From: an uncultured bacterium
GTDB taxonomy: Bacteria; Ratteibacteria; UBA8468; B48-G9; DSTR01
DNA: 64,000 nucleotides
Assembly: GCA_964645405.1 (NCBI GenBank)
Contig: CAZYCA010000044.1
Location: 78,503-142,502, forward strand
Direction of reading: 5' to 3'
In this document: positions 10,059-30,575 of the stretch, in pieces
Numbering within the stretch: position 1 is the stretch's first letter
How the letters are laid out: each line of letters begins with the position of its first letter
Program-made: the position numbers and the translations under genes
The notes under the pieces: generated by a model
Seen by the model: only the letters and a program-made list of their open reading frames with translations
Told to the model about the DNA's origin: nothing
Database searches by the model: none

Positions 10059-10060
10059 GA

Positions 10061-11908
10061 TTAAAGGGTATACCGGTTACCTTTTGAACCATTCAACCAG
10101 TTAGTGAATCTTTCCTGGTGAATCATGGAAAGCCGGATAAGAGCATCCACGGCAACATAGCTGGAAAGCTCACTTCTGTTATTTTCTAAAAAAGACTGGA
10201 TTTGTTCTTCATTTTTCGCGCCCTCTGTAAAATTTCCTGTCAGTTCATAATCCCAGCTTTTTTTCCCTGCTTGCACGTATTCTATCCAGAGTAAATAACG
10301 GTTTACCCATTTCTGGTAAGGCATCTGAAGGAGGAATTCTTTAAGCAATTTCAGCTGTTTTACCGGGTTATGTTCCTTACCCAGTACATTTTGCACCTGC
10401 CTCAGTTTTTCTCTTAAAAAAGTACCTGATTTTCCAGCCAGTGCCTGGTAGTACTGTCTGGAGAGCTCTTCAGGATTTTCCTTCAAACTCCAGAGGATTT
10501 TGCCCAGGGACCACTGAGGGAAAATATCAGGCCAGCCATCAAAAATAGAACAAAGGTAAAAAACCTGTACATCATGCCGGGTATACCAGCGAACTTCGTC
10601 AAAGCGGATTTCCACGCGGGGATGGTAGAGATACCTGGGACGGTCAAAACGTCTGGTTTCATCATAGAAGCTTCCTCCGTATTCAAAAATGCCCAATCCC
10701 TGGTTTGTTTCCTTTACAACTTTAGACCATTTCCGAAACAATTTTCCATACTCTCTTTCATCCACCGGATTAATGATATCAGGTTCCGGATAACGTGTGC
10801 CCAGGGTAAGCTCTGGTCCAGATGGCTGGTAGATACGCTTTTGGTATGGCCTCAGGTAAGGACAAAGCATAGTGAAACAACGCTCATTAGGCTGGAGTTT
10901 CTTCCAGGGCAGATTGAGGAGATTAGAATAAGCAATCAGTTCTATCACTGTAGAAGATGGCAGTTTCTCAGACAGAAGGCTGGCGAGATGGTAAAGATGT
11001 TCATAAGGCGTTTTTTCCACGCACCTGGGACACTGACACCAGTTATTAACGCCATCATGTGGCCAGAGACCAAATATTTCTGCCTGGGGGAAACTCATCA
11101 TATGTTCTGCCATGCGGTCAGTAATAAATTCCGCTGCCTCCTGGTTGGAATAACAGGGCTGGATAGGAAGCTCGGCATTCAGATGCGGACAATCAGGTAT
11201 AACTACCTGGTCTGTAAGAACACGTCTTCCGTTTCTATAACCAAACCAGTCAGGATGCTGGAGAAACTTTTCTTCCGGCAGAAAGTATTTCATGGCGTGG
11301 TCACCCAGTGTCAGATGGATACACCGACTGGCACAGAGTTGAAGTATTTCCTTCCGGTAACACTCCTTCTGACTCATCCAGTAAGCACTATTTCTTCTCC
11401 ACAGGTTCCAGCGATTGCGGTTCATCCATCTGATAAAGGCGCGGTTGTCTCCATTGGGACTGCCCCCATCCCGTCCCCGGAAAGGGAAAAGAGGTTTCTG
11501 AACTCCAGCAGGTAAGGCTTTTCTCTTGCCAAAAAGAATATCCCTGTCTTCCAAACCAGCCCAGATAACCCCTGTTAAACACTGTAAAACTTCCTGAACT
11601 CCGTAGAGTGCGCCTTCGTTACCTCCAGCAACCACCCAGATTCGCCTGTCAGTATTTATCAACTGGAAACTCTGTCGGGTAATTTCCCGGGCGCACCGGC
11701 TGTGAAAAGAATCCGGTATTTTGGGTTCTGGTTTCTTTACCCTGTGGGAAGGAAGGTTAACAGGGATATTCCGGTTTTCCAGACTTATTACCACCAGAGA
11801 AATTCCTGCCAGTTGTTTTCTTGCCTCCTTATACTTTTCCACAGATTCAATATCTTCCCTGATACTTTCAAGAATTGTAGCGGAAACATTGGTGTGTTCA
11901 ACCTTCAT
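10061..11908 (-). CDS. DUF4838-like putative glycoside hydrolase (no signal peptide); last gene of the long minus-strand operon
   Basis: About 615 aa from MKVEHTNV... (the ORF-track start at 11971 would overlap the upstream gene, so the ATG at 11908 is preferred). Contains the WCQCPRC Cys cluster and a TIM-barrel-like core. The family assignment is from memory only. Confidence 0.45.
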   Translation of the reverse strand: MKVEHTNVSATILESIREDIESVEKYKEARKQLAGISLVVISLENRNIPVNLPSHRVKKPEPKIPDSFHSRCAREITRQSFQLINTDRRIWVVAGGNEGALYGVQEVLQCLTGVIWAGLEDRDILFGKRKALPAGVQKPLFPFRGRDGGSPNGDNRAFIRWMNRNRWNLWRRNSAYWMSQKECYRKEILQLCASRCIHLTLGDHAMKYFLPEEKFLQHPDWFGYRNGRRVLTDQVVIPDCPHLNAELPIQPCYSNQEAAEFITDRMAEHMMSFPQAEIFGLWPHDGVNNWCQCPRCVEKTPYEHLYHLASLLSEKLPSSTVIELIAYSNLLNLPWKKLQPNERCFTMLCPYLRPYQKRIYQPSGPELTLGTRYPEPDIINPVDEREYGKLFRKWSKVVKETNQGLGIFEYGGSFYDETRRFDRPRYLYHPRVEIRFDEVRWYTRHDVQVFYLCSIFDGWPDIFPQWSLGKILWSLKENPEELSRQYYQALAGKSGTFLREKLRQVQNVLGKEHNPVKQLKLLKEFLLQMPYQKWVNRYLLWIEYVQAGKKSWDYELTGNFTEGAKNEEQIQSFLENNRSELSSYVAVDALIRLSMIHQERFTNWLNGSKGNRYTL

Positions 11909-11930
11909 TTTTCCCCCGCTTTTTTGGAAA

Positions 11931-14900
11931 TTATTTTGCGCTGAGTTTTTCCTGTAACTGTTCAATGGCACTGGCTACTTTTTCCCGGCAGGCCAGAATA
12001 AGTTCATACGGCATGTTATAGTCATTCAAGGTTGGAAAAACATCATTCCAGATATTCTCCAGAATGTTTTGCGCTTTTTCTGCTTCTTTGTCCCATCCTT
12101 TTTCCTTTGCCTGAAGAATCATACTCCTTAAAAGATTTACATACCAGGCATCTTCCATCCCTTCCCTGATAATCTCCCATCTAATACTATCGACGGGCGA
12201 AGTGTCCACCCATCCTTTCCCTGGTTTTATCCAGGCAGGTTTCTCTGGATGCACAGGATACATTACGGAATTCCAGTGGCTATACCGGGAACGCCAGACT
12301 TCGTCATGGTCCTCCCAGCATTGTATTCCCCACCAGGAAATCAAATCAAGGTCATAACGAGCTGCCTGCCAGAGGTAACTGCGCCATTCTGAGGCTGGAG
12401 CAGAAACCGCAGTTTTTGGTGGAGGACCACAGTTGTACCAGGAAACCAGATCTCCTGCCTGCTTAGCCTTCTGGAAAAATGTACTGTTATGGAGCATGTA
12501 AAGAATCTGCCAGAGTTTAACAACACCCAGTCCTTTTTCTGCTTCCTGGTAATCAATGTTGTTAAAGGCAGTCATAAGAGGCATGCCAGCAGCTCTGGCT
12601 GCAGGAGTCAGTTTCTCCCACCAGTATTGAAAACCAGGTGGTTCATCACTTACTTTCAGAACAAACCGCTCCAGCCATCCTTTTCTGAGAAGGTGTTTTT
12701 TGAAAAGACCAATCATTTCCTCAGCATAGTAGTCAGCAATCCAGTGAACTCCTTCTCTTGATGTTTTTCCCTCAAACCTTTTAGGAAAAATTTTTTTGAA
12801 TTCTGAATGTTGTCTCCCCAGCAGCGCAAGTTCATAAAGCATATAACGAAGATTCCAGGGTTTTCCAGCCGCGTCAATGGTTTCCACCAGCCAGTCAAAG
12901 TAACTGGTATCTAAAGCTACAGTCCCATCATCATTAACTTCCAGCCAGTCAATATCCAGGTTTTTGTATTTCCCTTCCGGGCTGAAATGCCAGCGAAACA
13001 TTTCAGGAGGTCCCAGGTGGATAACTCTCATCCCGTGTTCTACAAGATTAATTACCAGGGATTCAATGTCCTGTTTCTTCAGTTCCCTTCTGGCATCAGG
13101 AGGAAACTGATTCAGGTGTATGTAGGGGTCACCACCCAACCCTTTCTCAGGAATGCTGAAATTGCGAACAGTCAGTTCCAGTGGAATGGTTTGTGAGACA
13201 TCATCTCCGGTGCAGGTTAAGGTGGAGTGGTAAACGCCAGGCTCAGCATTCTCAGATACTATTACTGTGAGCCAGAGCGCCTGGGTTTGCCCGGCATCCA
13301 GGGAGGAAACAGGTCTTTCCAGAAGCACATCAGGGTATCCTGTCCACCCTTTTTCCCAGCGGTCAGGTTCAACTGGATAATAGTAAACCCACCTTAACCA
13401 TAGAGGAGCATGTTTTTTTCTGAATGCTGTCTTATACCTTCTGTCAATTTCTTTACCTGTTTTTTCATGGACTAATGGGCTCAAAGTTACTTTCAGGTTT
13501 TTGATTTTCTGAAAAGCAGTAATGGCCAGTTGTTCTACCTCGTATTCACCTCTGGCTGCCTTCAAAGAAACTTTTTCTTTCTTTTCTTTGTGGGCTCTAC
13601 TGTAAGGATAGATTTTCCTGTCAGCACCGGCTACCCAGAAAATAAATCCTTCTGGTTCTTTTTTCTCTTTCAGGTAGTCGGTGATAAATTTTCTGGCTGC
13701 TTTCACAGTTCCAGAGGCATCACTGCCGGAAATCAGAAGTACCGATTCCTGGGTATCTTCGTAGTGGGGATAAAAAAGAATTGCACCCTTCCCCTTACCT
13801 GGCCAGGTAAGGCTCACGGAGTTTTTCCACCAGCCTATTTCTTTGACTACCTGGTTGGTTTCTGGATTTCCGATAATTAACAATTTGCCCCCGGGATTTG
13901 TCCAGGCTAGCCCAGCTCCTGTTTTTCTGGCAATAGTAATTGCCTGTTTTTTTTCCTCCGGGGAAGCCTCTGCAGAACAGTAAATGGTAAAATCACTTTC
14001 CTGAAGAAACTGGTCAATCTGTTTTTGCTGCTGCCTCTGGTAAACATCGGTTTTCACCGGTGGCAGATTCACCGGCTTTGTTTTGACTTCTATTTGACTG
14101 AGATTAAATTTTCCAGAAGAATCAACCTGGCCTATTGTTTTTCCAGCACTATCCACCGCCACAAGTTTCCAGTCAGAGTTGACCTGTGTTTTAATAATCA
14201 GGGTAGTGTCAGGACAGGCTCTATATTCAGCAATCCTGTTGCCTGTTTTTTCAACGACAAGTAACTTACCAGTAAAGAAAGGAATGATTTTCCCCTGGAG
14301 AAGATTTTGCTCACAAAAGAAAGGGTAAACAACAAGAAATAAAGGATTGATTCCATAAACCTTTTCCTTTACACCGGTGCAGGAGGACAAATAAACCTTT
14401 GTTTCCCAGGTATCTCCAGGCTTGAGCACCAGGGTTTTCAGGACCGGTTCCAGGGTGATTCCCGGACAGTTATAGAAACCAACAAGGGTTTTTTCCTCCA
14501 CCAGAAAACAGAGGGTGTCAGAACTGCTGCGGTTAACCCAGGCAGCCCAGTTTCCTTTCAAAACAGGTGTTGGAAGCTTTCCTGAGACCCAGTGCCGGGC
14601 TGGCTCATCCTTCCAGGAAGCGTTAAAAAATTTATCATTTTTGTATTTTTCTCTGTACTGCGTTAAATTTAGAGATTGATCCAGTTCCAGAATCCCTGCT
14701 TCTGTTTCCAGAAAAATGGTGTCATCCTTTTTTTGATATTTCCCTCTGGCACCAGGGCTGGCAGCGCTGTGAAGTCGCAGGGAAAAAGCAGAAACTTCCC
14801 CGCAAATGTTTTCTAATTTATAGCTCAGTTCAATAGTAGCCAGATCTCTTCTAAGGACCCATTTTTTTGTCAGCCGATAGGCTCCTTCACTTACCTGAAT

Positions 14901-15266
14901 CAAAACCGCGCCAGAACCATCCTGGTTTGTTCCATAAACTACGGGAATAAAAAGCCTTCCTGCCTGAGGTGCTTTACCCTGAAACTCTTTCCAGTTAACC
15001 GGGTCCCATTGCTCGCCCAGAAGATGTCCTCTGACATAATCTGTCTGTCCGTAAAGAACATCCACCATTTCATAGCCTGTGGATTTGAAAAACCAGGATA
15101 GAATACCCTGACTGCTACCCGGACGGCTGCTGATTTTAATATGGAGGAGACTGTTTTTTAGATTGACAGAACCATCAGGGTTAATTTTCACTTCCTGAGC
15201 CAGACCCGTTCTGGTAAGTGTTATTACCAGCAGGCAGAGAGAGATAAGCAGTCTTTTTCTTTCCAT
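11931..15266 (-). CDS. Giant secreted protein (1111 aa) with a C-terminal DUF4091/GH123-like (GH20-like D-E dyad) glycosidase module
   Basis: Signal peptide MERKRLLISLCLLVITLTRTGLAQ. C-terminal module with GVYHSTLTCTGDDVSQTIPLELTVRNFSIPE, then WLERFVLKVSDEPPG, then WYNCGPP...WWG. Paralogous to modules in the two genes described at 15280 and 22135. Confidence 0.6.
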   Translation of the reverse strand: MERKRLLISLCLLVITLTRTGLAQEVKINPDGSVNLKNSLLHIKISSRPGSSQGILSWFFKSTGYEMVDVLYGQTDYVRGHLLGEQWDPVNWKEFQGKAPQAGRLFIPVVYGTNQDGSGAVLIQVSEGAYRLTKKWVLRRDLATIELSYKLENICGEVSAFSLRLHSAASPGARGKYQKKDDTIFLETEAGILELDQSLNLTQYREKYKNDKFFNASWKDEPARHWVSGKLPTPVLKGNWAAWVNRSSSDTLCFLVEEKTLVGFYNCPGITLEPVLKTLVLKPGDTWETKVYLSSCTGVKEKVYGINPLFLVVYPFFCEQNLLQGKIIPFFTGKLLVVEKTGNRIAEYRACPDTTLIIKTQVNSDWKLVAVDSAGKTIGQVDSSGKFNLSQIEVKTKPVNLPPVKTDVYQRQQQKQIDQFLQESDFTIYCSAEASPEEKKQAITIARKTGAGLAWTNPGGKLLIIGNPETNQVVKEIGWWKNSVSLTWPGKGKGAILFYPHYEDTQESVLLISGSDASGTVKAARKFITDYLKEKKEPEGFIFWVAGADRKIYPYSRAHKEKKEKVSLKAARGEYEVEQLAITAFQKIKNLKVTLSPLVHEKTGKEIDRRYKTAFRKKHAPLWLRWVYYYPVEPDRWEKGWTGYPDVLLERPVSSLDAGQTQALWLTVIVSENAEPGVYHSTLTCTGDDVSQTIPLELTVRNFSIPEKGLGGDPYIHLNQFPPDARRELKKQDIESLVINLVEHGMRVIHLGPPEMFRWHFSPEGKYKNLDIDWLEVNDDGTVALDTSYFDWLVETIDAAGKPWNLRYMLYELALLGRQHSEFKKIFPKRFEGKTSREGVHWIADYYAEEMIGLFKKHLLRKGWLERFVLKVSDEPPGFQYWWEKLTPAARAAGMPLMTAFNNIDYQEAEKGLGVVKLWQILYMLHNSTFFQKAKQAGDLVSWYNCGPPPKTAVSAPASEWRSYLWQAARYDLDLISWWGIQCWEDHDEVWRSRYSHWNSVMYPVHPEKPAWIKPGKGWVDTSPVDSIRWEIIREGMEDAWYVNLLRSMILQAKEKGWDKEAEKAQNILENIWNDVFPTLNDYNMPYELILACREKVASAIEQLQEKLSAK

Positions 15267-15279
15267 CTTCCCCCCATTT

Positions 15280-18200
15280 TTAATGAGTAATGCTTTCCAT
15301 GAGAGCTTTTCTCAGAGCAGTTTTTACTGTCTGAAAACGTTCTGGTGTGATATTGTAAAAACTCTGTCTCTCCCCTTCAGGAGCCAGTACTGGTGCAACC
15401 ATTTCTTTCAGTTTTTCCTGTCCCAGTCTCTCTTTAACCAGGAAAAGGAGTTTAATGTCCTCCTGTGCCTGGCGGAAAAGTTCCAGTCTCTGGGAACCAA
15501 TAATTCTCTTTTCAGAAGCATCAGGATAAAAAACTGTGGTCCCACCAGGCCAGCCACCTGGATAATCAGTGTTAGCGTAAACATCAAAGACAAAATGGTC
15601 CCTCAGTTCTACAACCCCTTTCCCGCCTAACTCTCCACCGGACCACATATGACTCCAGTATCCACCACCATAATAAACAGCTCCGTCACACCCTTTCAGG
15701 AAACTGTCCCAGAGAAAAAAACGAATCTGGGTGGGAGTAGTCCGCAAATCAGCATAAGGTGCTCCACCCTTGCAGGTGTAATTCCAGACAACCTCACCCT
15801 CTTTTTTTCTTTCCTGAAGAAACTTCTGACTGAAAATGGTTGGTTCCTCCTCAGACATTGTCCTGCCGTAACGAGTAACCAGGAAAATCCAGTTAGGGCA
15901 CCAGATATTGATGGTACCAATCATTTTCTCTATCTCCTTCCTGCTGGTTCTGTTATGGCAAACTGTTACCGGTAGCCCTGCTCTGCGGAAAAAAGAAGCT
16001 GCTTTCACCCAGGCATCCATATCTGCCGGTTCATCTCCCACCCGCACATAAAGCCGGTCACGATAATCCTTATTTTTTAAAGAAGCAGCCAGAGAATCAG
16101 CCAGAAGATTAAATGCCTCTTCCTCTGTGAGATTAAGTTTTTTCATCATTGTTCTGGCTACAGGCAAAAGATTATTTGGATGCCCTACGATTTCAAAACG
16201 TCCGGAAAAGCCAGCCTTTTGATAAGCAGAAATGACTTTTTCCATCCCGGTTAAATCCCAGCACGGCATTCCTTTCTCCTTGAGGAAACATTCCAGACCA
16301 TACAAACCCCAGCCACTTCCAGCTACTGTAGCCACAGTAACTCCGTGAGAAGAGAAAAGTTTCCCCAGTTGAAAGAGTGCTTTTTCATAACAGGGCTCAT
16401 CAGGTTTTAAATTCAGGTAAAGAGCAAGACTGTTTTCCCGGTAAGAATAAAGTCCGTACATCAGGTTCAAATCCATCACCCAGCCAGAGGGTAAAACTAC
16501 TGGTAAGACATTCATTTCTACAGGTATCTGGAAAGAACTATCTGCACAGTCAATCTGTATCTTTCCCTGATAAAGACCGGGTACTGCAGAATCAGGAATC
16601 AGAAAATTGAACCAGAGGGAAAGGTAACTTTCTGCCGGGACCTGGTCAGGTATTCCTGGCCACAGGGCATCATTATTCGGTTCCGGACAGACATAAACAG
16701 GCCTTTTTTCTTCAGGAATATTTAGAGGATAGGTTGGTGCTCTGTGAGGTAAAGGATGCCCGATGAGGTAAATACTTCTTGCTGCAGGATAAACAGTGCC
16801 GTCAGAATCCAGCAAGGGAAATGTCCAGTAGATATGAGAAATTTCAGACTCTATTCTTGAATTGTTTGCGTTTTTAAGGGTTACCTGCACCCGGATAATT
16901 TTTTGTTTTTCCGGGAAAAAAAGAAGAAGGTGAACTGGTTCTACTTGTCCCTGACAGGCAGTAATATGGACTTTTTCAGGTTTAGACCTTCTCATCCATG
17001 GTCTTACCCTCATTTCTGGAGAGAGAAGACGAACCTGGGGACAGGTTATGGGTTTTAAATGGAAATGCTGGATAAGATATTCCGTCGCCAGTTTTACTCC
17101 GGAAATATCCTGGCCACCAGCATAAATTACAGGAAGCCCGGTTTTTAGAAAATCAGGAATGAGAACAATTCTACCTTTCTCTGGTCCTGGATAATAGCAG
17201 TCCACAAAGCCATATCCCGGGTTATTCGCCCCTACCACAGTATTTTCTTCAGGTGTACCCACCAGAATGAGTAAAAGGTTCTCACACTGGTAGGTTGGAT
17301 ACTGGGTGTTAAGAAAATTACTGAAGTTTTTAGCGGTAAGCAAAGGAGACTGAAATGCTTTTGCCAGTTTCTCAGCACAATAGAGACTACTTTTACTCAT
17401 TTTATCTCCGCTTAGAATAGCAATGTCCATCTCCTGGAGAAGTTTTGATATTTTGTTTCTGTCTGTAGCAGTGATGGCTACCCTGCCGGAAAAAACTTCT
17501 CTCTCTTTAACATAATGCGGAGCCAGAAAATCTGTCTGAAACTTCAGGTAGTCTTTTTCCCCGAAAGAAACGTCCTCAGGTAGTTGTGGATAAAGTGTTA
17601 ATCTCATTCTCAGGGAAACAGGTTTGCCAGCAGTATATTCTGTCCCGAACTGGTGGGGATTGATGTAGTTAGATTTTTCATTGAAGTTCCATATCCACCA
17701 TTGCAGTCCGGAACGATAGGCACCAGCTTCACCTTTTTTAGCACCAAAACTGCTTTTCAGGTCATCGCAGACATAAGAGAAAGCAGAAACCTTTCCTGCA
17801 ACGGCTGACCAGCAGCAACCTGTATTTTGCTGACTTTTGGCAGGAATGCCAAAAACAACAGAGACGGGTTTTCTGGTTTTTACATCTAAGGAATGTACCA
17901 GCCAGGTTTCTGTGGTGGTATCTACCACCAGTTGTCCTGTTCCGCAGATATAAAGACTGCCGTTTTGCTCAGGGACAAAAAGGGTCTCCAGATCTATCAT
18001 CGGTGATTGCCGGTAGATAGAGATTTTACTTTTTGTTGTCCCCGGGATGATTTCCACGTTCTGGTATCTGAGCTGTGACTTTCCAGTAATTAACAAAGTC
18101 GTCCTGAATGGTCCAGAGATTATCCTGATATCTGGTTTGCCCTGAAAAAAACCCAAATGGAACCCCTCTATGGAACTGACTCCTGTCTTCTGCCCGTTCC

Positions 18201-18654: not shown

Positions 18655-18670
18655 GGGCAGTTTTCCCTTA

Positions 18671-21600
18671 TCATCTCTGAGTTACCCAGAGATTTTGTAA
18701 TCTGATTGACGGAGAAGAAACTTTTTTCATTTCAGTGCCATAGACCAGACGGTCTCTCATCTCCAGAATTAACCTTTGCAAAACAAGGGGGAAATCCATT
18801 ATTCCGTCTCCACCTTCATACTTCCAGTTTCTATCTCTTGGGCCGTGGTAACCACCAGGGTAGCGACAAGGAAATCCCAGACGGATATTACACCAGCCAT
18901 CAAAGTTGATATAGGTTTGACTTTCCCAGTCTGAGACATTCCACCTGTCTGGTTCATAGCCGATAGAAATCCAGCGCTCTCCTTTGGCATCTTTAAACTC
19001 CCAGATGACCCGGCTCCAGCTACTGTTTCCCTTAATTACGAGCCCACAGGAATCTGCTGCAGTAGGTACAAGAATAGTCTTCTTTGGTTTTAAAATCAGA
19101 TACCGGGGACAGACAGCTGGGATCTCTGGCTGTGGCAGAAGAGTTACTTCTGTTACCGGTCCTTTCTTCTCGTCAAATACAGCGGAAATTGTACCTTTAC
19201 CAGCCCGGGCAGGATTGTCAAAGGCGTTTGTCTCCAGTTCCTCATCCGTTTCTGTCAGAAGCTGCCAGGATTCTGGTGAAGAAAAACTGTCTAAAATATA
19301 TACCTTTGCAGGAAGACTATCATCCAGGAAACTTTCACCTGCAGTAACAGAAACTACCTTTTCCGGACATATCAGATAGCCAGGCATGGCAGATACCTTT
19401 ATTGATACTGGCTGGTTATCAATTTTAACAGGGGTAACATTTCCCATACTGTCTATGAAGGTACTCTGGCACTGCCTTGCTGACTTGATTAACACCTGCC
19501 TTTCCCCTCTTAAAGTCCAGACAGCCAGGATTGTTTCTTTCCCGCGCTGGAACTGGAAAGCATAGAGACTGGTAGAACCTGTGTCCCATGCTTGCTGGTA
19601 TTTAGCCTGGTCCAGAACCCGGGTCAAAGTAGCCATCGCCACATAAGAAATTTTGGGGTATAAGAGAGGGTTTCTCATAAGGAAACCACTGGCACCATAG
19701 ATGGTGTAATAATAAGAATCAGCTACATCTTCCAGTAAACCGATATTAATACTGGGCATACCATAAGCCAGGGCATGGAGAGCATCTCTGACATAATAGG
19801 CAGCCTGGTCTTTCCAGGAAAGTGCACCAGGTTGGGTACAGCGGCAAATCCATTCAAAACCGGAAGAAACAGGTATGTCCTGGTAACCATAAATTTTTTT
19901 CATTTCCTGAAGCCACCAGACTTCCTGAAAGTTTCCTAATTCTGGTTGTCTTTCTGGCATTTTCCAGGCTGAAACTCCTTCTATACCAAAAGCATCAATA
20001 TACTCTTTCGGAAATTTTGCCCGCATAAACTGGATCATCAGAGGAGAGCTACTGTTACCAAAAGTAATTTTTACTCCAGGAAGTTTTTCCCGGTATAACC
20101 TGGCTGCTTCCAATGCCTGCTGCCAGAGTTTCTGGAATCTCTCGTTTTCTTCAGGTGTAAGTTCTGGTGCTGGTAGATTAAGAAGTTCCGGATAAAACAT
20201 CTGAGTCAGCCTGCCGGAAATACCTGTTTCATGGAAAATCATCGCCCATCTGACATGAGGATGTTTTGTAAAAAAAGTATTAACGATTTCCTCTCTCCTG
20301 GTTCCATACCAGGGAGCCATGGAATAGGAAAGTTTGTACTTAGCCAGTTGTTCACCAGAAAAATTTTTCCATCCTGAAGGACAGATGTGACGTATACCCA
20401 TCTTCTGGAGAAGCGGACCAACAGTATCAAGGGAGGCACAACCACCATGAGTACTACCAAACCACCAGACCCCAAAGGGTGATTCCAGACCAGCCTTTCT
20501 GGTATCGGCAGGAAGCAAGGCATAGAAAAAAGGTTCTTCCCAGATTTTTTCTCCTTCTTTATTTTTAATGGTTATTCTTGCCTGAAACCAGCCAGGATTT
20601 TTCTGACTTAAGTCCACTTCTATGATGTTATCGTTTTTTTCCGGGGAAGCTGGCAGAAAAACAGGAATATTTCTGGTTGTCTTCTGGTTATAGAAATCTT
20701 CTGTAGTCAGAATGAGGGAACCGGAGAAAGGAATCTTCTGATTGTTTTTCAAAATGACCTGGAGAGAAGGTTTTTTCTCATCCGCAAAGATAAAATCTCC
20801 ATGTTTTGTCCTGAGCTTTACTTCTACTGGACTTTCTTTCAGGGTCAGAGCCAGAACATGTACACTGCTGGGTAGTCCTAAAGGTTTAAGGGAACAGTTC
20901 TGGTAAGCGAAAAAATGGACAGCGGTACGAATCTCTTTTGTAAGTTCCAGATCCAGAAAATCACCTTCCCGGCCAAACTTGGGGAAATTGTCTCCCAGTA
21001 AATCAGAAATCTGACCTGCTGGTAAATCTACAGAAACAAGCCATAAAGGGATTTGGACTTCCTTTTTTCCCAGTATAATAGTAGCCTGTCCGGCTTTGCG
21101 GATATTTTCTGATGGTGACTGGGAATCCTCAGGGAGATAAACAACAGTGTCAGCAAAGGCATCACCTCGACCACCGCTATCCCCGTAGTGGTTACCAAAA
21201 CGGGTTAACCGCAGTCCCAGGGCCGGTACCTTATTCTTATTCGGCTCTACCAGGCAAAGAAGGTAAGCCTTCTGGTAAAAACGCTTTGGAATTCTGAAGA
21301 TGATACTTTCCGGATTGCCATCAAAGGCACTTCTGGTAGTATAGTTGTCGCAGAAGTCTGCCGGGTCAATACCCTCTTCCAGCCACCGGGAGAGGCCAAC
21401 GTCAATGTGCTTGTTCCAGGCAGCCACCTTCAGGGGAATACTGGAAAAGGTATCTTCCTGGATATTGAGGAACTTTAATTCCAGGCTACCTGGCCGGCCA
21501 TAATACTCAATTTCTAAAGGAAGAAAATCATTTTGTCTGATAGTTTTTTTCTTCTGAAAACCGATAATAAGACATCCCGGGGAAACTTCTAACAAGGTAG

Positions 21601-22138
21601 AATTTTTGTCCGGCGGTCCAGGAATAAAATTTATAAACCTGCCGTCCAGCCATACTTCCATACCTTCAGAATGAACATCCAGTCTTAACTGGAAAGGATG
21701 TTTTGTGGCAGGGGTAAAAAGATGGTATTTGGCTAATACCTGGTTTTGCTCCTCGAATACGTGTCTGTCAACAAACTGGTAAAACCAGCCACCTTTTCTT
21801 TTCTCGCCGACATAAAAGTAAGGGTTTGGTTTAATATAGTAATTCTGCTGGAGAGAAGGTTTCCCTGAAGTTGCCAAATCAAAAATCAGGCAGGATTCTT
21901 TTGTCTCTCTGGGAAGGTGTAAAGAAAATGAGCTACGTACGCCAGCCTGAGACCAGGAAACAACAAGGGTGGCATTTTCCTTTAAAAGAGAACCTTCCAG
22001 GACAACTCCTTCCCCGGTTTCTGGTAAAGAAAAATGGTAGCGGCTTTTCTCAGAAACCTGGAGGGGAAGGTCAGGTATCTGGGCGAAGACACAAACTAAA
22101 GGTAAAAAAAATAGCAGCAGGAAGAATATTCTGTTCAT
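18671..22138 (-). CDS. Giant secreted protein (1155 aa), glycoside-hydrolase-like. Different architecture; no clear DEP motif
   Basis: Signal peptide [21 protein letters not shown]-terminal half resembles a TIM-barrel GH (AMIFHETG...EGVSAW) followed by beta-sandwich domains. Its stop overlaps the upstream start by ATGA. Confidence 0.45.
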   Translation of the reverse strand: MNRIFFLLLFFLPLVCVFAQIPDLPLQVSEKSRYHFSLPETGEGVVLEGSLLKENATLVVSWSQAGVRSSFSLHLPRETKESCLIFDLATSGKPSLQQNYYIKPNPYFYVGEKRKGGWFYQFVDRHVFEEQNQVLAKYHLFTPATKHPFQLRLDVHSEGMEVWLDGRFINFIPGPPDKNSTLLEVSPGCLIIGFQKKKTIRQNDFLPLEIEYYGRPGSLELKFLNIQEDTFSSIPLKVAAWNKHIDVGLSRWLEEGIDPADFCDNYTTRSAFDGNPESIIFRIPKRFYQKAYLLCLVEPNKNKVPALGLRLTRFGNHYGDSGGRGDAFADTVVYLPEDSQSPSENIRKAGQATIILGKKEVQIPLWLVSVDLPAGQISDLLGDNFPKFGREGDFLDLELTKEIRTAVHFFAYQNCSLKPLGLPSSVHVLALTLKESPVEVKLRTKHGDFIFADEKKPSLQVILKNNQKIPFSGSLILTTEDFYNQKTTRNIPVFLPASPEKNDNIIEVDLSQKNPGWFQARITIKNKEGEKIWEEPFFYALLPADTRKAGLESPFGVWWFGSTHGGCASLDTVGPLLQKMGIRHICPSGWKNFSGEQLAKYKLSYSMAPWYGTRREEIVNTFFTKHPHVRWAMIFHETGISGRLTQMFYPELLNLPAPELTPEENERFQKLWQQALEAARLYREKLPGVKITFGNSSSPLMIQFMRAKFPKEYIDAFGIEGVSAWKMPERQPELGNFQEVWWLQEMKKIYGYQDIPVSSGFEWICRCTQPGALSWKDQAAYYVRDALHALAYGMPSINIGLLEDVADSYYYTIYGASGFLMRNPLLYPKISYVAMATLTRVLDQAKYQQAWDTGSTSLYAFQFQRGKETILAVWTLRGERQVLIKSARQCQSTFIDSMGNVTPVKIDNQPVSIKVSAMPGYLICPEKVVSVTAGESFLDDSLPAKVYILDSFSSPESWQLLTETDEELETNAFDNPARAGKGTISAVFDEKKGPVTEVTLLPQPEIPAVCPRYLILKPKKTILVPTAADSCGLVIKGNSSWSRVIWEFKDAKGERWISIGYEPDRWNVSDWESQTYINFDGWCNIRLGFPCRYPGGYHGPRDRNWKYEGGDGIMDFPLVLQRLILEMRDRLVYGTEMKKVSSPSIRLQNLWVTQR

Positions 22139-25100
22139 CTATCCTCCTTGTTTCCCAGGATTAACTGATAAAGTCTGGAACGGGCTTCATTCCAGCTGTC
22201 CATTTTCTGGCTATAGCCATATTTGTAAGGAACAACTGCTTCCAGTATTTGTTGAAGTTGACTGTTTAACTGGCTGGCTTTTTCCTTTTCTCCTTTTTCT
22301 TTTAAATCATGAATTTTTTTCTCCAGCTGCTCCAGCAGTTTCATATCCTGGATTCCTTCGGCTTCCAGCTGCCGGCGTGTAGTATCCAGGATGGTGCCAT
22401 CAGGAAGAAAAGCAATCCGGTGGTCAAGACCATGGTCATAACGGAAGGGGACAGGCTGGATATGGATATTACAATGCAAAGCAGCATAGTTTAAGGCACC
22501 ATCAAATTTCCATTTCTTAGTTAGCCAGTAGAAGGGTAGATTGTCAACAGGTTGACCTGTGATTCTGGTGGGTGGAACCCCACAGCAGTACCACCAGACT
22601 TCTTCTCCTACTTTCTGTCTTTCCTGGAAAAATGGACGGAGAACATTATGCTGGTAGTTAGGACACCATGGTTCCATGATACCAGAAGCTACCTCTATCT
22701 CCGGGTAGTTTCCTGAATGGCAGGTCATGGTGCGTAGTCCGGACAAGCGATAGGGTTTTGCCCACTCTACCCATTCTTTTATATCACGTGGTTCATCACT
22801 TACTTTCAGAATAAATCTTTCCAGCCTTCCTGTTTTTTCAACAAACGCAGCCAGCTGCTCAGCGAACATTTTTTGACATCCACCATTATGCCAGTGGCTG
22901 ACACCAACAAGCTCTCCAGAAATCTTTCCGGTGTCATGTGTTAACTGAGAAAGAAAGAAAGGTGGTGGCAGATTCTCTTTTCTATAAACCTCTTCTATAA
23001 TTTGCATCTGTTCTTTTAGTAGGGAAAAATCAACCGTAAAAGGATACTCCCGGTTTTCTTCTGAAAAAGCAACTATTTTACCTATTTCCAGTTCTTTCCC
23101 TTTCTGGTGGAAAAAACGCATTTTTTTCACTTTCTCTGACAGGCCGGTGAAGAAAAGTCCGTACCAGGAAGGTTCAGTGTTAGTTCCTTTAGGATATGGT
23201 AAAAGGTCTAATCTTTTCCATATTCCCTGATTTCCACAGACCTCCACTACTAAATCTTCCGGAGAAGTAACCCTGACTGCCAGTCCTGCCTGTCTTATTT
23301 TTAATGGTGAAGCAAACTCCACTGTAAGAATACTACCTTCCGGAACTTTTTTACCTCCTGCGGTGTAGACAGCCCAGTTCTCAGATTCAGCAGTTTGTGC
23401 GCTGGTTATTGCTTGCCTGACCGGTTCTATTCCTTCCTCACATTCCCAGGTAAGCAGCATTGGCAGACTGACTACACTTACGCTATGCCGGGCTTCGTTT
23501 TCTGCCAGAGATTTTGTTGCCTTTTTCCATTCTTCTGTCCCTGGAGGGAAAAACCAGGGCACAGCAGCAAAACTCATTGTTTTTACTCTGGAAAACGAAG
23601 GTAACTGTATGGGTAAGACGTTTACTCTTACAGGAACTGATTCCTGATAGTTTTGCCCGGAAACAACAATTTCTCCGTGATAGATACCCGGTCGGGTAAA
23701 CGTGGTTGTTTTTACTGTTAGCCAGATGCCTGTTGATGTCTTTCCGGGTAAAGAAATGGGAAAATCTACCAGAAAATTTGGTAGTCTCAGGTCCCCAAAA
23801 AATGGTTCCCATTCATAAAAACCAACTGCCCGCAGTTTCACCTCACCGGAAAAATCACCCTGGTCAGAGACAAGTTTCCTGCAGGACGCAGATAAAGAAA
23901 CAATATTTTTGTTTGCGGTGATACCAAGCTGAAGGGAACGAGTGTCATTTTGTCCCAGGGTAAGAGATAGGATTTCAGGTTTTCTTCTTTCTGGATGTAA
24001 CTGCCAGGGATAAACAACTTCTAAAACGTCAGAGGAGAAAAGACGGAAGGGTTTATCTGACAGCAGGGGAGATTTAATCTTTCCGAGAAGTCGTCTCCCG
24101 GCAGCAACCACAGCTTCAGGAGTTTCTCCAGTAACAAAAAGCCAGTGAATGCTGGCGTCGCTGTTTTTGTACCAGCCGACCACCCCTTCTTTGTTATTGA
24201 GAAAATTGGCATCAGACCAGATACCTTTTGCTGCCAGCAGCTGACGGCAGTAACGATGTGTCAGTGGCGTGCCAATAGCCAAAACAACCCCAGGATAGAG
24301 GTTAAGACCGATATCATCAGAAACCAGGTAAACACTGGCTTTTTCAGCAATTTCTCTGGCTATTTCCAGTTCTTCTTTTGTGCCCATTTTGGGATAAACA
24401 ATAACAATTTCTCTCCGGCTGATAGCATCAGCCACAGTCTCCAGGTCCTCAGAAAGAAGTGGAGGTTTTAATGGTTTAAAGGCTGGAAGTTCTTCTCCAG
24501 GTTGAGAATGGGGCAGCAACTGGATATTTTTTACTATCGGGCTTAGTTCTCCCCGGACAGAATCAGACTTCAGAATAAACTTTGCCTGGCAGACGGTAAG
24601 AGGAAATGTGGTAGCAGAAGGTATCTTTATTACCTTACCGGGTTCGGTAACAGGACCCAACCAGCAGGTCCAGTTTTTTCCATTTCCGAACCGCACCAGA
24701 GCAAAAAGTTGTGTTTTCCCCTTCACTTTCACTCCATGTATTTCGCAGTCTCCGGCCCCGTAAGTATCCTGTTTTGCCGGGAAGATTTCATTTTCCAGCC
24801 AGAGGTAGTGCCTGCCAGAAGGTAGATTATCTGCCAGAAGATGTTCTGATTTTTCTTTTTCCGGATGCAAGATAAGTCCGGAATGGCCGGTATCCAGAAA
24901 CCATCTAATTTTGCCCGTGCCAGAGACTAAAAGGGAAGCATTATCACCACAAAATTCAATTCCTGCCTGGCCACCAATCTGCCGCAGCAGAACAGATTTT
25001 CTTTTCAGCCAGGGTGTCTGCCAGCGCATGATGGGAAAGCCGCGGAATGACTCCATCTGAGGAGTATAAATAATTTCTTTTTCTTTTTCCTCGCATTCCC

Positions 25101-27108
25101 AATTTAAGGAAATACCCTTTATCCCCGGGGATAGACTTACTTCCTTTACCAGGCAGCCTTCCAGGGCGAAAGCAGTAGAGTACGCTTCCAGTTCTTTCAC
25201 CCCTGTTTTTAAACCCAGGCTGGAAGAAAGTTCCAGTTTTATACAGGCAACCCCGTGGACAGGATTGATTTGTAAGGTAACCTCTTTCCCCGGATAGAGA
25301 CTTTTTGTCCGGAATTGCTCCCAGAAGTTCCAGTCCCTTTCATACCGGCTGATGGTCTTTCCTGAAATGTCAAGAAAACTAATGGTGAAATAAGTATATT
25401 CTTCCAGGATGATGACCAGTTTTTCTATACTTGCTACCCGGGGAAGACTGACCATCAAAACTGCAGGAAGGTTTTCTGGTTGCCAGGATGTTTCCCTTTT
25501 CCCATCTATTGCCAGGCTGCCATTGCCGCTGGAACAGGTAAAGGCAGCATCCTTCAGAAGATTCTTACTGGCAGGAAAATTAGCCAGAGCAATTTCTTCT
25601 CCAGCAAGAATAATAGTTTCAGGCGTTTCTGGTAAAGGTGGTAAAGAACAAGAAGGTGTTTTCAAAAACGATTTTTCCGGTGTTGAATTTCTGGGTAACG
25701 GTCCCTGGACAATCTTTGTTTCCCCGTTTAACACAGAGAGGAACCATTCTGCTGCCGTGGCAGCCTGGCAGGTAGGGCAAAACCTGACTGCCTGCTCGAG
25801 GTTTTTAATGGCAGTTTCTTTATCAATACACCAGCTACCCCTTCCCGCCTTGAAAAAGTAATCACTGGCAGCATCAGCCAGATTGAGTCTCCTGCACATT
25901 TTGGCACAAAACATCATTACTTCCACCATCAATCCGGGCCGGGTGTCTAAAAAAGGTAGCTGTGCCAGTTGCTTGATTTTATGGCCATCGCGGTGAATGT
26001 CGCCAGCATTTTTTTCCAGATATTTTTTTATCAGATAAATGCTTTCTGTTTTTCCTTTCAGAAAGCTACTGATATGAGCGTAATAGTCTTCAGCTATTCT
26101 TCCAGAAGGCATCACTTCCAGGGCAAAACTGAGGAAAGGAATCTGTCGGGCAGAAGATAAACCTTGAATTTCTTTGAGAAAATCCTTCCAGAAAGGTTCT
26201 GTCACTCCGGCAGGTTGTTTTTTGATTTCTTCAAGTATTTTTAAGGCATCCTGATACTGCTTTGCACCAAATAACTGGTGGATGGAGGAAAGAATTTCCT
26301 TCAGTTTCTGAGCAGTGTTCTTCTCTATCTCTTCCATTTCCTTTAATTTCTGACTGGAATTTTCGTCTCCTGACTTGCTTTGCAAAAAAAGCAACCTTTT
26401 TAAAGCATTCCACCTTTCTGGGGTCTGTTCCTGGTAACGGTCAAGAAAACGTTTCAGCTCAGGAATGGCTTTTTCTGCTGGAACCGTGGAAGTGTAACAG
26501 TCGAGAAAGGACCAGAGAAATACTCTACTGTAAGGATAGGTACCACAGACTTCTTCTCCCCTTCTGGCAAGAATATATTTTTCTTCTGGTGAGAGAGGCA
26601 GACTGGCAATTGTATTCTGGGTTAAGGAAAGCATCCAGGAAGCATGCTGACAGTTGTCCAGGAAAACCAGCAAACAATCTTTTCTTATGTCTTCAGGTAA
26701 ATTACGGTCAATAACAATTCTTACTAACTGGTAAAGCAGGCTGGCCTTCAAACTACCATAGTCAGGATAATCCTTACAGAATTTTGCAAACCCCTCTGCA
26801 AAATTCAGGTACCTGCCTGATGCAAATAAGGAAGAGAGAAAAGTATTTGCTGACCAGGCTGGCCATTGAGTTTCCGGGTAAACATTAGCCAGGTACTTCC
26901 AGCGGGAGAAAAGTTGCTCAGGAGTGAGACCTTTTTCCAGAATAATTTCTTCATAAATTCTTTTTGCCTGGTCCTGCCGGGCTAAATTGTGTTCCGGGTC
27001 GCTGAAACAGTTTCCGCAGAGGAAACTGCCAAGAAAAAATGGCAAGTAAGAAAAACACTGCTTCTTCATTATTCTTTGCTTAAAGCTAACCTGGTGAAAA
27101 GCTACCAC
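22135..27108 (-). CDS. Giant secreted multidomain protein (1657 aa): alpha-helical repeat N-domain, discoidin (F5/8 type C) domain, C-terminal DUF4091/GH123-like module
   Basis: Signal peptide [23 protein letters not shown]. About 450 aa of helical, TPR-like sequence. Discoidin-like [31 protein letters not shown]-terminal [30 protein letters not shown], then [14 protein letters not shown], then WYCCGVPP. Confidence 0.6.
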
Positions 27109-27854
27109 ATTCTGAATTTAGTACTCCAGGGACCATCATCTGTGCCAGAATTGGGCACTGGTGGTGTCACGTATTCTGCATGGCCATCAGCAAACAGAAT
27201 GTTTACACCGTAAAAATGGTGTCTTGCCCACCAGTCCACCACCGGCCGACCAACCGTGGTACTGGCAAAACTTCTGGGTAGCCTGACTATGTACTGGCTG
27301 AAATCTCCGAGGACAAAAAATCTGCTGGGTTCCGGTAACCGGCCAAGTCTTCTGGGACCGGTACCACCTGTTCCCCACCAGTTCCTTCCAAACTGAAGGG
27401 TAAAATTATAGCCATAACTGTGGCCCAGCCAGGAAATGGCAGTACTTGGCCAGCTTGTCGGACACTGAAACTGAGGGATAAACCTGTCAATAGAAGTTGG
27501 CAGAGTGGAATCATGGCAGGTTTTTCCTGTCAGATCTAATTTCGGGTCCAGATAATGAGCAATCTGTAACATCCAGTGAGCCCAGTATTCAGTATTATTC
27601 GGGTAGGTGCCACCAATCCTGGCCGGGTCCCAGGTTACTACGGGAAAATAATCATCATTGTCCTGAAGATACAGGAAAATTGCCAGTCCCATCTGTTTGC
27701 AGTTATTAAGGCAGGCAGCACGTCTGGCATTTTCTCTGGCTCTTTCCAGCACAGGTAAAAGAATGGCAGCTAAAATGGCAATGATGGCAATTACCACTAA
27801 CAATTCAATCAGGGTAAATCCATTTTTCACCCATAATTTTTTTCTGTCCATTTT
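27102..27854 (-). CDS. Prepilin-type N-terminal cleavage/methylation domain protein, DUF1559/H-X9-DG family (pseudopilin-like)
   Basis: Preferred start [11 protein letters not shown]|[24 protein letters not shown] (class III signal peptide, Glu at +5). C-terminal [13 protein letters not shown] matches H-X9-DG. The ORF-track start at 27932 would overlap the next gene. Confidence 0.7.
27720..27822 (-). repeat. About 100-nt segment roughly 80% identical to 28447-28548 (5' ends of the two tandem pseudopilin paralogues)
   Basis: Pairwise comparison by eye: ...ggtaaaagaatggcagctaaaatggcaatgatggcaattaccactaacaattcaatcagggtaaa... versus ...ggcaaaagcaaagcggctaaaatggcgatgatcgcaattaccactaataactcaatcaaagtaaaa... 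Confidence 0.5.
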
Positions 27855-27861
27855 TTCCTCC

Positions 27862-28566
27862 TCATTCAACAAAGGTAAACGGGTTATAAAGAACACCAAT
27901 ACCGGTGGTGGGATTATCAATGCTTTGTTCAATGTTAGGACCTGCTACCCACTGGACCCGGCCATCCATAAAAAGCACATTTACTCCCTGCCAGCCATGA
28001 TTCAGGTAGGCACCGGTGATTCTTGGCTGGTAAGCACTGGCAGTCGTATCCTGCTTTGCTTTCCAGATAGAACTACGTTTGTCAAACGTGTAGTACCACT
28101 TATCGCTTTCATCTATTAAGAGGGCAAACTTCTGGAAGTAGGGGTCACTGCTGACCTGAAGCTGGATGGCATAGGCGTAAGAACAGTGGTTTCTTTTATC
28201 CTTTCCGGTGGGACATCCTCCCGGACAGTTCTGGGAAATACGGGTATTGCGGCCGATATGGTCGTAGGTGCGGGCTGAAGGGCAGACAAAAACTCCGGCA
28301 GATTTCAGATACCCTTCTGTCTGTAGCATCGCCAGAGAACGCAGCATATTCAGGCTGTTGGGCCAGGAAGGAAAAAATCCTCCAAAATCCTGGGCATACA
28401 TAGTTAAAGATGTGCCCAGTTGTTTCAGGTTACTCGTACAGACGCCACGTCGCGCGTTTTCTCTTGCCCGGCCCAGGACAGGCAAAAGCAAAGCGGCTAA
28501 AATGGCGATGATCGCAATTACCACTAATAACTCAATCAAAGTAAAACCTTTACTGTCTGTCTTCAC
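27862..28566 (-). CDS. Prepilin-type N-terminal cleavage/methylation domain protein, DUF1559-like (second tandem paralogue)
   Basis: N-terminus MKTDSKG|[34 protein letters not shown]-terminal [19 protein letters not shown]. Its start overlaps the regulator stop (28563-28566). Confidence 0.7.
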
Positions 28567-29645
28567 CTTATCCTCCTTGTTGATTCTCTGATAAGAATTT
28601 TACCCGGGATAATTGTTCTTAGTTCTACTTTCTCGCCCCGGATAAGACGGATTAGTTTTTCTGCGGCTTTCCTTCCTAAAAGAGAAGGGAAAATATCTGC
28701 GGTGGTCAGACTGGGGATGGTGTGCTGGGTAAAGGAAGAATTGTGACAGCCGCAGAGAGAAATATCTTCCGGGACAGATAATCCTTTTTCTCTGATGGCT
28801 CTCAAGGCACCAACGGAGATAAAATCATCGGCACAGACCAGTGCGGTAGGGGAATATTTCAAAATTTTTCTGGCATTTTCATAGCCGCTGATTTCAGAGA
28901 AAGCACCATGTTTTACCAGGGTTTTTTCATAACCAATCCCGTATTTCTGAAGAGCCATTCTATACCCGTTAAGTTTGTCCTGGCAGACAGTCAGTCTCTT
29001 TGGACCGTTTATAAAGCCTATCTTTTTGTGTCCTGACTTGAGAAGATGTTCTGTAAGCAGGTAAAAGATTTTCTGGTGGTCGACATCTACGGTAGAAACA
29101 TTTTGTTCTTGTGTTCTGCCCAAAACAACGAAAGGGGTACCCATCTTTTGCAGTTTTTTTACCCTGTTATCAGAAAAGGTGGGCTCGGTCAGGATAACAC
29201 CCTGCAGGGAATTTTTCTTTCCGGGCTCAAGGTAACCGTTCTCCGTATCAGTGAAGACCAGTACGTCCTGTCCGTACGTACATGTAACACTCTTGATTCC
29301 CAGAAGGAAATCAGAAACAAAAGGTGAACAGAGTCCCCCGTTGGTGGAGGGGATAACTATGCCAATAGGTGCACCTCCTTTCTCAGCCGAGCAAAGTTTT
29401 TCTGCCACATAGGTACCTTTGCCGGGAACCCGGAAGAGAAGGCCATCTCTGGTTAGTTCCACCAGCGCCTGACGGATACTGATGTGGCTGACACCAAAGA
29501 GATGACACATCTGTCTTTCTGAAGGTAGTAACTGACGGGGTTTGAGTATTCCTTCCACAATTGCCCTGCGGATGGCTTCCTTGACCTGAATATAGAGTGG
29601 CACAGGATTATTTCTTTCTACCTTCTGGAATATCTTTTCAGGCAT
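28563..29645 (-). CDS. Transcriptional regulator with a GntR-type winged-helix N-domain and a LacI/PBP1 periplasmic-binding-fold sugar-sensor domain
   Basis: N-terminus [48 protein letters not shown] (GntR HTH). The C-terminal ~270 aa resemble a LacI-family ligand-binding domain. First gene of the long minus-strand operon. Confidence 0.65.
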
Positions 29646-29781
29646 AATGGCCCACTGTTTATATACAGATATATTTTACACCTGACACCTCTGGCAGTCA
29701 AGTCAGGCAGAAAATAAAAAGAGAAAGGAGTATTCTGTTTTGTGATAGGGTATAATAAAAAGGTTACAAGCAAGGAGGGTT

Positions 29782-30540: not shown

Positions 30541-30575
30541 TTTCTCGTGGTAAAGAAGTTTTTTGGAGGAGGGGA

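Follow-up and report, generated by a model that had tools for sequence, protein, structure and literature searches.

In the 64-kb stretch of contig CAZYCA010000044.1 analysed here (the window; positions count from its first letter), the minus-strand block 10061-29645 encodes, in order of transcription, a sugar-type regulator, two prepilin-type DUF1559 proteins (pp234 and pp249), four giant exported proteins (g1657, g1155, g1124 and g1111) and a leaderless DUF4838 protein. The block is supported as one operon-like unit, and comparison of gene order among relatives supports a linkage between pilin and giant-enzyme genes that is conserved across several lineages of the Planctomycetes-Verrucomicrobia-Chlamydiae (PVC) group. 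We tentatively read the locus, at somewhat less than an even chance, as a substrate-inducible glycan-degradation operon in which the pilins would serve as module-specific accessory pseudopilins for enzyme export or tethering. What is new here is that the accessory proteins of a regulated locus for glycan degradation are DUF1559 pilins; how they act we infer.

All long open reading frames (ORFs) of the block that are compatible with a gene model are on the minus strand, with the coordinates given by an earlier note on this stretch, although there are eight genes and not the nine which that note had counted. They are tightly packed. The regulator and pp234 share 4 nt, as the note had claimed, with the sequence GTGA (a GTG start) in place of its ATGA, and the 4-nt overlap of g1657 and g1155 at 22135-22138 is indeed ATGA. 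The remaining gaps had been put at 13-22 nt, which holds for g1155/g1124, g1124/g1111 and g1111/DUF4838 (16, 13 and 22 nt) and fails for pp234/pp249, which are 10 nt apart. The junction of pp249 with g1657 is either a 7-nt overlap, if g1657 starts at GTG 27108, or a 32-nt gap, if it starts at ATG 27069, and we favour the latter start since it gives a normal signal peptide. Shine-Dalgarno sites of the AAGGAGG type precede pp234, pp249 and g1155. Promoters and terminators were scanned on the minus strand of region 9900-29850, where the best sigma-70-like match (10/12), TTGACT-17-TAAAAT at 29701-29673, lies upstream of the regulator, with its -35 element TTGACT at 29701-29696 and its -10 element TAAAAT at 29678-29673. 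It is bracketed by a 15-nt inverted repeat (29672-29686 / 29702-29716, 80% complementary, 15-nt spacer) that we regard as a candidate operator; this palindrome was found in none of the fetched loci. The terminator-like sites in the scanned region all lie inside ORFs and have short stems with 3-4 G-C pairs, and none falls in an intergenic gap of the block. No Rfam family and no tRNA was found within the window, so that no riboswitch or leader RNA accounts for regulation. Packing, Shine-Dalgarno sites, overlaps and the single strong promoter-like site thus support one operon-like unit, as judged from the sequence.

The comparison of gene order draws on 79 genome loci encoding g1111 relatives and several metagenome loci, annotated with the window's own proteins and the prepilin motif; labels such as L003 or L007 denote these genome or metagenome stretches of relatives. 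Orthologue counts are based on 15 non-redundant loci with full-length orthologues, and the statistics of pilin adjacency, defined as a distance of <=300 bp from a giant, on 18 non-redundant loci, i.e. the 15 plus three short fragments. A pilin gene lies inside the same-strand cluster in 8 of the 15, from metagenome-assembled genomes (MAGs) labelled Omnitrophota, Lentisphaeria, Victivallales, Verrucomicrobiota and Planctomycetota, while in three of the 15 the sequence on the side in question ends too early for a verdict. The position of the pilin varies: it is found upstream of g1657 (L007, L018), upstream of g1155 (L020), as a pair between g1155 and g1111 (L006), between g1657 and g1111 (L022), upstream of g1111 (L012, and L009 with one gene between) or downstream of g1111 (L003). 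Eight of the nine pilin ORFs in the 18 loci are adjacent to a giant, where about a quarter would be expected by position (binomial P = 1.4e-4), and where the density of pilins across control loci totalling 661 kb predicts about 0.8 (Poisson P = 2e-6). Loss of synteny between pilins and hydrolases in relatives had been named beforehand as refuting the proposed system; the linkage is instead kept across several PVC lineages, with the order rearranged, which supports its conservation at the level of gene order.

A second set of loci retains the front of the operon with another enzyme behind it. Orthologues of pp234 (63-66% identity) occur in L171, L172 and L174. There a sugar-type regulator is followed by the pp234 orthologue, then by that of pp249 (67%), one more pilin and, last, a GH39-like giant, a paralogue with only 31% identity to g1155; in L171 (6136-8348) and L172 (1044-3221), both from related MAGs, the pp249 and pp234 orthologues stand in tandem. 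Conservation is thus higher in the two pilins than in the enzyme behind them. The converse is seen in the closest genome, L007, where g1111 is 71% identical and the pilin only 39% identical to pp249, and pilin cassettes seem to be recombined with enzyme genes from one module to another. In distant GH123 loci (Armatimonadota, Planctomycetota and others) pilin adjacency was seen in 4 of 13 cases and is not significant (P = 0.16). Individual cases of such pairing were nevertheless observed: in L069 (a Verrucomicrobiia MAG) two distant GH123-like genes, at 1145-5460 and 8342-12456, each have their own adjacent pilin-like gene, the same pairing occurs in L027 and L032 (Phycisphaerae), and in L024 and L033 (one an unclassified MAG, the other from Armatimonadota) a pilin gene in divergent orientation is some 330 bp away from the GH123 gene, narrowly outside the 300-bp limit.

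Table 1. Window coordinates and principal traits of the genes and sites of the block and of the convergent GH38 gene
Feature	Coordinates	Strand	Description
Candidate promoter and operator	29672-29716	-	sigma-70-like site bracketed by inverted repeat
Regulator	28563-29645	-	360 aa; GntR winged helix-turn-helix (residues 17-80) and LacI/GalR-type sugar-binding domain (about 94-356)
pp234	27862-28566	-	prepilin-type DUF1559 protein; leader MKTDSKG cleaved before FTLIE, Glu at +5; C-terminal H-X10-DG variant
pp249	27102-27851	-	second prepilin-type DUF1559 protein; cleavage before FTLIE; H-X9-DG motif
g1657	22135-27108	-	1657 aa from GTG 27108; 1644 aa from the likelier ATG 27069
g1155	18671-22138	-	exported giant; modelled (beta/alpha)8 barrel, GH39-like clan GH-A fold
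g1124	15280-18654	-	exported GH123-like giant, D874-E875
g1111	11931-15266	-	exported GH123-like giant, catalytic domain with D874-E875
DUF4838 protein	10061-11908	-	615 aa from ATG 11908; DUF4838 match 2.8e-18
GH38 alpha-mannosidase	7224-10058	+	944 aa, all GH38 domains (Pfam), no signal peptide

The regulator matches Pfam GntR (8e-19), Peripla_BP_3 (1e-31, residues 198-356) and Peripla_BP_1 (6e-23), and its NCBIfam matches are to LacI-family models, all sub-threshold. With an N-terminal GntR winged helix and a C-terminal Peripla_BP_1/3 domain it has the composition that defines the AraR type, and this chimera of a GntR DNA-binding domain with a sugar-binding domain is known from Bacillus AraR.

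The two pilin-like proteins are paralogues (32% identical) with a common mature N-terminus, FTLIELLVV, and both match Pfam N_methyl and DUF1559 (4e-8 and 2e-12 in pp249). They carry a class III signal, with a short basic leader, Gly-1, Phe+1, Glu+5 and a hydrophobic helix, and score above the cut-offs of PF07963 and TIGR02532; the three signal residues (G7, F8, E12) are invariant across 60 homologues. Against PF07596 they reach 41.3 and 48.1 bits (gathering score 23.3), with only the first 35-103 profile positions aligned, and against the H-X9-DG model TIGR04294 pp249 scores 19.2, above the cut-off of 19, and pp234, with its X10 spacing, 18.0, just below it. The structural model of pp234 has the type IV pilin/pseudopilin fold, a long N-terminal helix packed on a beta-sheet, with the loop 101-124 and other parts of the globular domain poorly modelled. 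DUF1559 was described earlier as a new solute-binding protein family (PMC2754498) and bears the Pfam identifier SBP_bac_10; by its model, pp234 is a true pilin fold and not a solute-binding protein. A 304-aa pilin-like protein (MRKGFSLIEVV, weak DUF1559 and FecR matches) is encoded across the right end of the window, at L176 11731-12645 (from about window 63979); its gene follows that of a 188-aa membrane protein (window 63429-63995), a context free of carbohydrate-active enzymes (CAZymes), and would be a third pilin-type gene of the host genome.

Three of the giants, g1111, g1124 and g1657, are paralogues across their C-terminal 600-700 residues, and in all three the catalytic domain PF13320 of glycoside hydrolase (GH) family 123 is above the Pfam gathering score of 23.1 bits. 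The match is clear in g1111 (GH123_cat 1.4e-11, 44.8 bits; GH123_N 7e-9; Glyco_hydro_123_N_2 7e-9), lower in g1124 (1.5e-6, 28.3 bits) and marginal in g1657 (3.8e-5, 23.6 bits). In g1111 an undefined N-terminal stretch of 550 aa precedes the GH123 N-terminal beta-sandwich and the catalytic domain; in g1657 a helical region at the N-terminus is followed by undefined beta domains and, at the C-terminus, by the GH123-like catalytic module with D1438-E1439. The Asp-Glu dyad (SDEP/GDEP) is aligned among all three giants, the SDEP of g1111 aligns with the ADEP of NgaDssm (PDB 8k2j, E 1.6e-15), and D874/E875/P876 of g1111 are invariant in 30 orthologues. Enzymes of the DUF4091/GH123 class are retaining beta-N-acetylgalactosaminidases that use a DE motif in substrate-assisted catalysis (Sumida et al., PMC11087588), and g1111, g1124 and g1657 are accordingly predicted, as GH123-like proteins, to carry modules of the beta-N-acetylgalactosaminidase type. 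They share with NgaP, CpNga123, BvGH123 and NgaDssm (PMC11087588) the catalytic domain, the N-terminal beta-sandwich and the DE motif. The characterised enzymes, however, have about 520-640 aa, whereas here the module forms the C-terminal half of proteins of 1111-1657 aa with 550-1000 additional undefined N-terminal residues; identity to the solved enzymes is low (best E 1e-15), and the substrate here is a prediction. A Pfam scan of the giants' N-terminal and middle segments at E<=1 returned nothing usable, and no NCBIfam model matches any giant or the DUF4838 protein. The GH123-like giants enlarge an enzyme class that was itself broadened not long ago.

The fourth giant, g1155, has no Pfam or NCBIfam match and by sequence does not qualify as a GH39 member; its phmmer match to BcGH39 (5jvk, E 6e-6) is local and limited to the C-terminal beta-sandwich. 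Its AlphaFold2 model, built from an alignment of 38 homologues, is confident (predicted local distance difference test 86, predicted template modelling score 0.90). In it, beta-sandwiches at the N-terminus (27-545) lead into a (beta/alpha)8 barrel (about 555-840), with further beta-sandwich domains towards the C-terminus, and this points to a GH39-like barrel of clan GH-A. Compared with BcGH39 (5jvk) and PslG (4zn2), g1155 is only 14-16% identical and lacks the GH39 Pfam match, has a conserved His-Glu motif before the putative acid/base where Asn-Glu is usual, and adds about 550 N-terminal and about 200 C-terminal residues of beta-sandwich domains. A profile search of 1.84 billion representatives placed 552 clusters (50% identity) in its family at E<=1e-30; about two-thirds of the 150 best matches span more than 1000 of the 1180 profile positions, and the members, 1100-1400 aa long, have no Pfam or NCBIfam model. 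On the strength of the model we consider this a candidate unclassified glycoside hydrolase family. The barrel of g1155 and the GH123-like modules together make all four giants glycosidase-like.

Signal peptides of all proteins were judged by eye and hydropathy. The N-termini of g1657, g1155, g1124 and g1111 are signal-peptide-like, and those of the DUF4838 and GH38 proteins are not. The DUF4838 protein, whose start at ATG 11908 matches public gene calls, has no relative in a sequence search of the PDB and is, from its sequence, probably a cytoplasmic glycosidase-like finishing enzyme. Its gene is the most constant partner of g1111 orthologues, downstream in L003, L007, L008, L012, L016, L019 and L020. 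The GH38 gene converges on the block, its stop 2 nt from that of the DUF4838 gene; it recurs in the orthologous clusters L004, L007, L009 and L022 and is functionally associated with the operon as a separate transcript. Relatives' versions of the cluster add GH2, two GH20, GH38 and a LacI-type regulator, and the recurring GH2, GH20 and GH38 partners point to a complex glycan containing hexosamine and mannose. As to gene identities, the earlier reading of a GntR/LacI-type regulator (Pfam GntR and Peripla_BP_3), of two prepilin-type DUF1559 proteins (N_methyl and DUF1559 in both), of three giants with a GH123-like D-E dyad (GH123_cat and the aligned dyad), and of a DUF4838-like protein facing a GH38 alpha-mannosidase agrees with the domain matches, with one exception: the suggested F5_F8_type_C domain of g1657 has no Pfam match at E<=1.

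Under the reading we favour, a breakdown product would be sensed by the AraR-type repressor, which would control its own promoter and the seven downstream genes. The four Sec-exported giants would attack a complex glycan outside the cytoplasm, three through GH123-like modules by substrate-assisted catalysis on the Asp-Glu dyad and the fourth through its GH39-like barrel, and the leaderless DUF4838 and GH38 enzymes would finish imported oligosaccharides. The proteins pp234 and pp249 would plug into a type II secretion system (T2SS) or type IV-filament machine encoded elsewhere, and would take the giants across the outer membrane or keep them anchored on the cell surface. In this scheme we infer the inducer, the substrate, the outer-membrane step and the interaction between pilins and enzymes. 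A pseudopilin role is favoured because polymer-acting enzymes of 1100-1650 aa in a diderm need folded-protein export, for which the T2SS is the standard route, and because a related MAG has a T2SS with DUF1559 genes just downstream. This Omnitrophota MAG (L086, 1-12171) encodes gspE-gspF-gspG, three pilin-like genes, a gspK-like gene, two unknown genes, polA and three tandem DUF1559 genes, the last 2.5 kb downstream of the canonical gspE-F-G-I/J/K operon.

Several observations weigh against this reading. The operon contains no transporter gene. Among the window's ORFs of >=150 aa, which are nearly all of its long ORFs, there is no GspD, GspE, GspF or prepilin peptidase, so that the gene set of a T2SS cluster (these four with pseudopilins) is not present within the window, and no secretion genes were found within 10 kb beyond each window end. 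The earlier note's overall interpretation is thus sustained for gene identities and operon, while its export or display by a T2SS pseudopilus goes further than the genes of the window. The pilins reach only 42.0 and 31.2 bits against the GspG equivalog TIGR01710 (cut-off 88.85), over residues 1-70, and known pilin and DUF1559 profiles match only their N-terminal 60-100 residues. Four of the 15 orthologous loci have adequate context and no pilin (L010, L014, L015, L004/5), and a distant planctomycete homologue of g1155 stands alone. We also rejected the idea that the cluster pilins form one orthologous subfamily, since often only the N-terminal 60 residues, or the helix, align between lineages, and with it the notion that one pilin lineage was inherited along with the enzymes. 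Elsewhere, DUF1559 genes stand beside capsule genes (L087) and M16 peptidases (L088), other relatives neighbour an aminotransferase, ZnuA and further unrelated genes, and in 80 metagenome loci with DUF1559-like genes the 40 operon-like neighbours are heterogeneous in Pfam content. On the other hand, among ten downstream partners of such genes four are exported proteins of carbohydrate-active type (a 1038-aa LamG+CBM9 protein, an AXE1-like esterase and two pectate-lyase-like beta-helix proteins), the other six being one sugar-isomerase-like barrel, two unknown and three unrelated proteins. The excess of carbohydrate-active partners is suggestive and not conclusive.

Three other explanations compete with accessory pseudopilins. 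The pilins could form or tip retractile type IV-like fibres that capture the glycan and pull it in to periplasmic giants, a 'selfish' uptake, of a kind suggested for Planctomycetes, in which pilins and enzymes would be co-regulated as both are substrate-specific, with no role in export. We consider this unlikely, though it deserves to be taken seriously: pp234 is modelled with a pilin fold and its N-terminus is assembly-competent, a conserved helix carries globular domains that diverge strongly, as expected for ligand-specific adhesins, and the operon lacks an outer-membrane or transporter component. There are parallels as well, in that Planctopirus binds dextran via crateriform-associated fibres and has an enlarged periplasm, type IV pili of Fimbriiglobus help adhesion to chitin (PMC5394234, PMC11131199), and a type IV pilus locus of Caldicellulosiruptor lies directly upstream of its giant-cellulase locus (bioRxiv 10.1101/622977). 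Yet neither Pfam nor NCBIfam detects a carbohydrate-binding module or lectin-like domain in the pilins, no binding site can be argued from the poorly modelled globular parts of pp234, such as loop 101-124, no retraction ATPase is encoded in the window, and multi-beta-sandwich enzymes of 1100-1650 aa would be more typical of the surface or the extracellular space. That the pilins are mere passengers, members of a very large, fast-evolving paralogous family dispersed over PVC genomes and brought into the operon by repeated chance insertion or duplication and with no tie to the glycosidases, would fit the mixed neighbourhoods of other DUF1559 genes, the pilin-free orthologous clusters, the non-significant adjacency in distant GH123 loci and the non-orthology of the cluster pilins (39% identity in L007 against 71% for g1111). 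We hold it to be improbable: adjacency in orthologous loci is far above background density, at least five named lineages have rearranged the cluster and still retain a pilin in it, tight coupling of translation together with strong Shine-Dalgarno sites links regulator, pilins and giants, the order regulator, pilins, giant persists with 63-67% pilin orthologues where the giant is a 31% paralogue, and the four carbohydrate-active partners of unrelated DUF1559-like genes speak in the same direction.

The third alternative takes the family name at its word, with DUF1559 as a membrane-anchored binding protein that hands sugars to an ABC (ATP-binding cassette) transporter such as the Opp/Dpp-type system at 39353-43218. 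The Pfam identifier, the older description and the lack of an adjacent binding-protein gene at this nearby transporter speak for it. The signal, however, is of class III (prepilin) and not a Sec or lipoprotein signal, a globular part of about 170 aa leaves too little room for the two lobes of a binding-protein fold, and the modelled pilin fold led us to reject the idea, which we regard as scarcely credible. The preferred reading can also be generalised: DUF1559 pilins may be modular substrate- or cargo-specific adaptors of a T2SS or type IV-filament machine, with regulator, pilin(s) and giants as the PVC counterpart of a SusC/D polysaccharide utilization locus (PUL). In this wide form the claim is speculative and rather unlikely. 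If true, the hundreds of DUF1559 paralogues per genome would exist because every module for glycan degradation has a pilin of its own, by which its enzymes are exported, tethered or fed.

The surroundings of the block bear on the host and on sugar metabolism. The window is chromosomal, with dnaG, rpoD, lepB, argD/F, L27 and an oxidative-stress cluster typical of anaerobes; the latter (3313-6212, plus strand) comprises Fur, rubredoxin, two rubrerythrins, 1-Cys peroxiredoxin and desulfoferrodoxin and indicates an oxygen-stressed anaerobe. Copies of the window are present in two Joint Genome Institute (JGI) metagenomes. Among named organisms, g1111, pp234 and g1155 are closest to MAGs labelled Candidatus Omnitrophota/Omnitrophica (63-68% identity), and the host is an uncultured, probably anaerobic bacterium of the PVC group. 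A 274-aa ORF with no Pfam match (6370-7194, plus strand), 29 nt upstream of the GH38 gene, is kept in both metagenome copies. Divergent from the operon, after a NIF3-family gene (29782-30540), a 2936-aa protein (30537-39347, plus strand) combines GH94 supersandwich and catalytic, glucoamylase-like and DUF3131 domains in an architecture like that of cyclic beta-1,2-glucan synthase. The Opp/Dpp-type transporter (minus strand) has two ATPases and two permeases, with a dihydrodipicolinate synthase/N-acetylneuraminate-lyase-like gene immediately upstream (43222-44286, minus strand), and could be a candidate importer of the operon's products. A sulfatase gene (48698-50194, minus strand; Sulfatase and SGSH_C) stands beside genes for a class II aldolase, an FGGY kinase and a xylose-isomerase-like barrel, and this region looks like a second sugar-catabolic neighbourhood in the window.

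Among known families and systems, pp234 and pp249 are members of the PF07596/TIGR04294 family of Planctomycetota, Verrucomicrobiota and Lentisphaerota, which has no assigned function and of which two members here sit in a specific context, a conserved enzyme operon. DUF1559 ranks with the largest paralogous families in Planctomycetota and allied phyla: at 68 copies, no paralogue group of Planctopirus is larger (PMC10632474), and Rhodopirellula has 74. In the searchable literature four papers name DUF1559, without giving a function or a link to CAZymes, searches for H-X9-DG, for pseudopilins with PULs in Planctomycetes and for Omnitrophota pseudopilins returned no prior description, and this is consistent with the earlier suggestion that the system is undescribed. 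The CAZyme clusters of Planctomycetota have themselves not been functionally characterised, with about a third of their genes unassigned (2024 survey). The locus gives DUF1559 a concrete, conserved and testable context, and a first clue to its role. Should the coupling prove functional, it would account for the use of very large enzymes on polymeric glycans by PVC bacteria without SusC/D, and would supply an annotation rule for thousands of genes.

In Caldicellulosiruptor (bioRxiv 10.1101/622977) pilin genes are likewise juxtaposed with giant multidomain glycoside hydrolases. That organism, however, is a Gram-positive-type thermophile with a complete pilus locus, tapirin adhesins and pilins that are not DUF1559, and its loci are adjacent instead of forming one operon under a sugar repressor as here. 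With the PULs of Bacteroidota the locus shares the logic of a regulator, several exported glycosidases for one glycan and non-catalytic envelope proteins. It differs in that SusC and SusD are absent (no scanned ORF of the window matches the SusC-like TonB-dependent transporter or the SusD family), in that the accessory proteins have a pilin fold, and in its PVC-group host. In the pul regulon of Klebsiella oxytoca the pullulanase PulA and the type II secretion genes pulC-O are induced by maltose via MalT. By analogy, we regard this as the closest functional precedent, since there too a very large exported glycosidase is co-expressed with pseudopilin genes under sugar regulation, and PulA folds in the periplasm, crosses the outer membrane and is kept at the surface. 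The pul cluster contains the whole machine (secretin, ATPase, platform, prepilin peptidase and GspG-K) and serves one enzyme, whereas the locus described here has a different type of regulator and combines two non-canonical DUF1559 pilins, below the GspG cut-off, with four enzymes.

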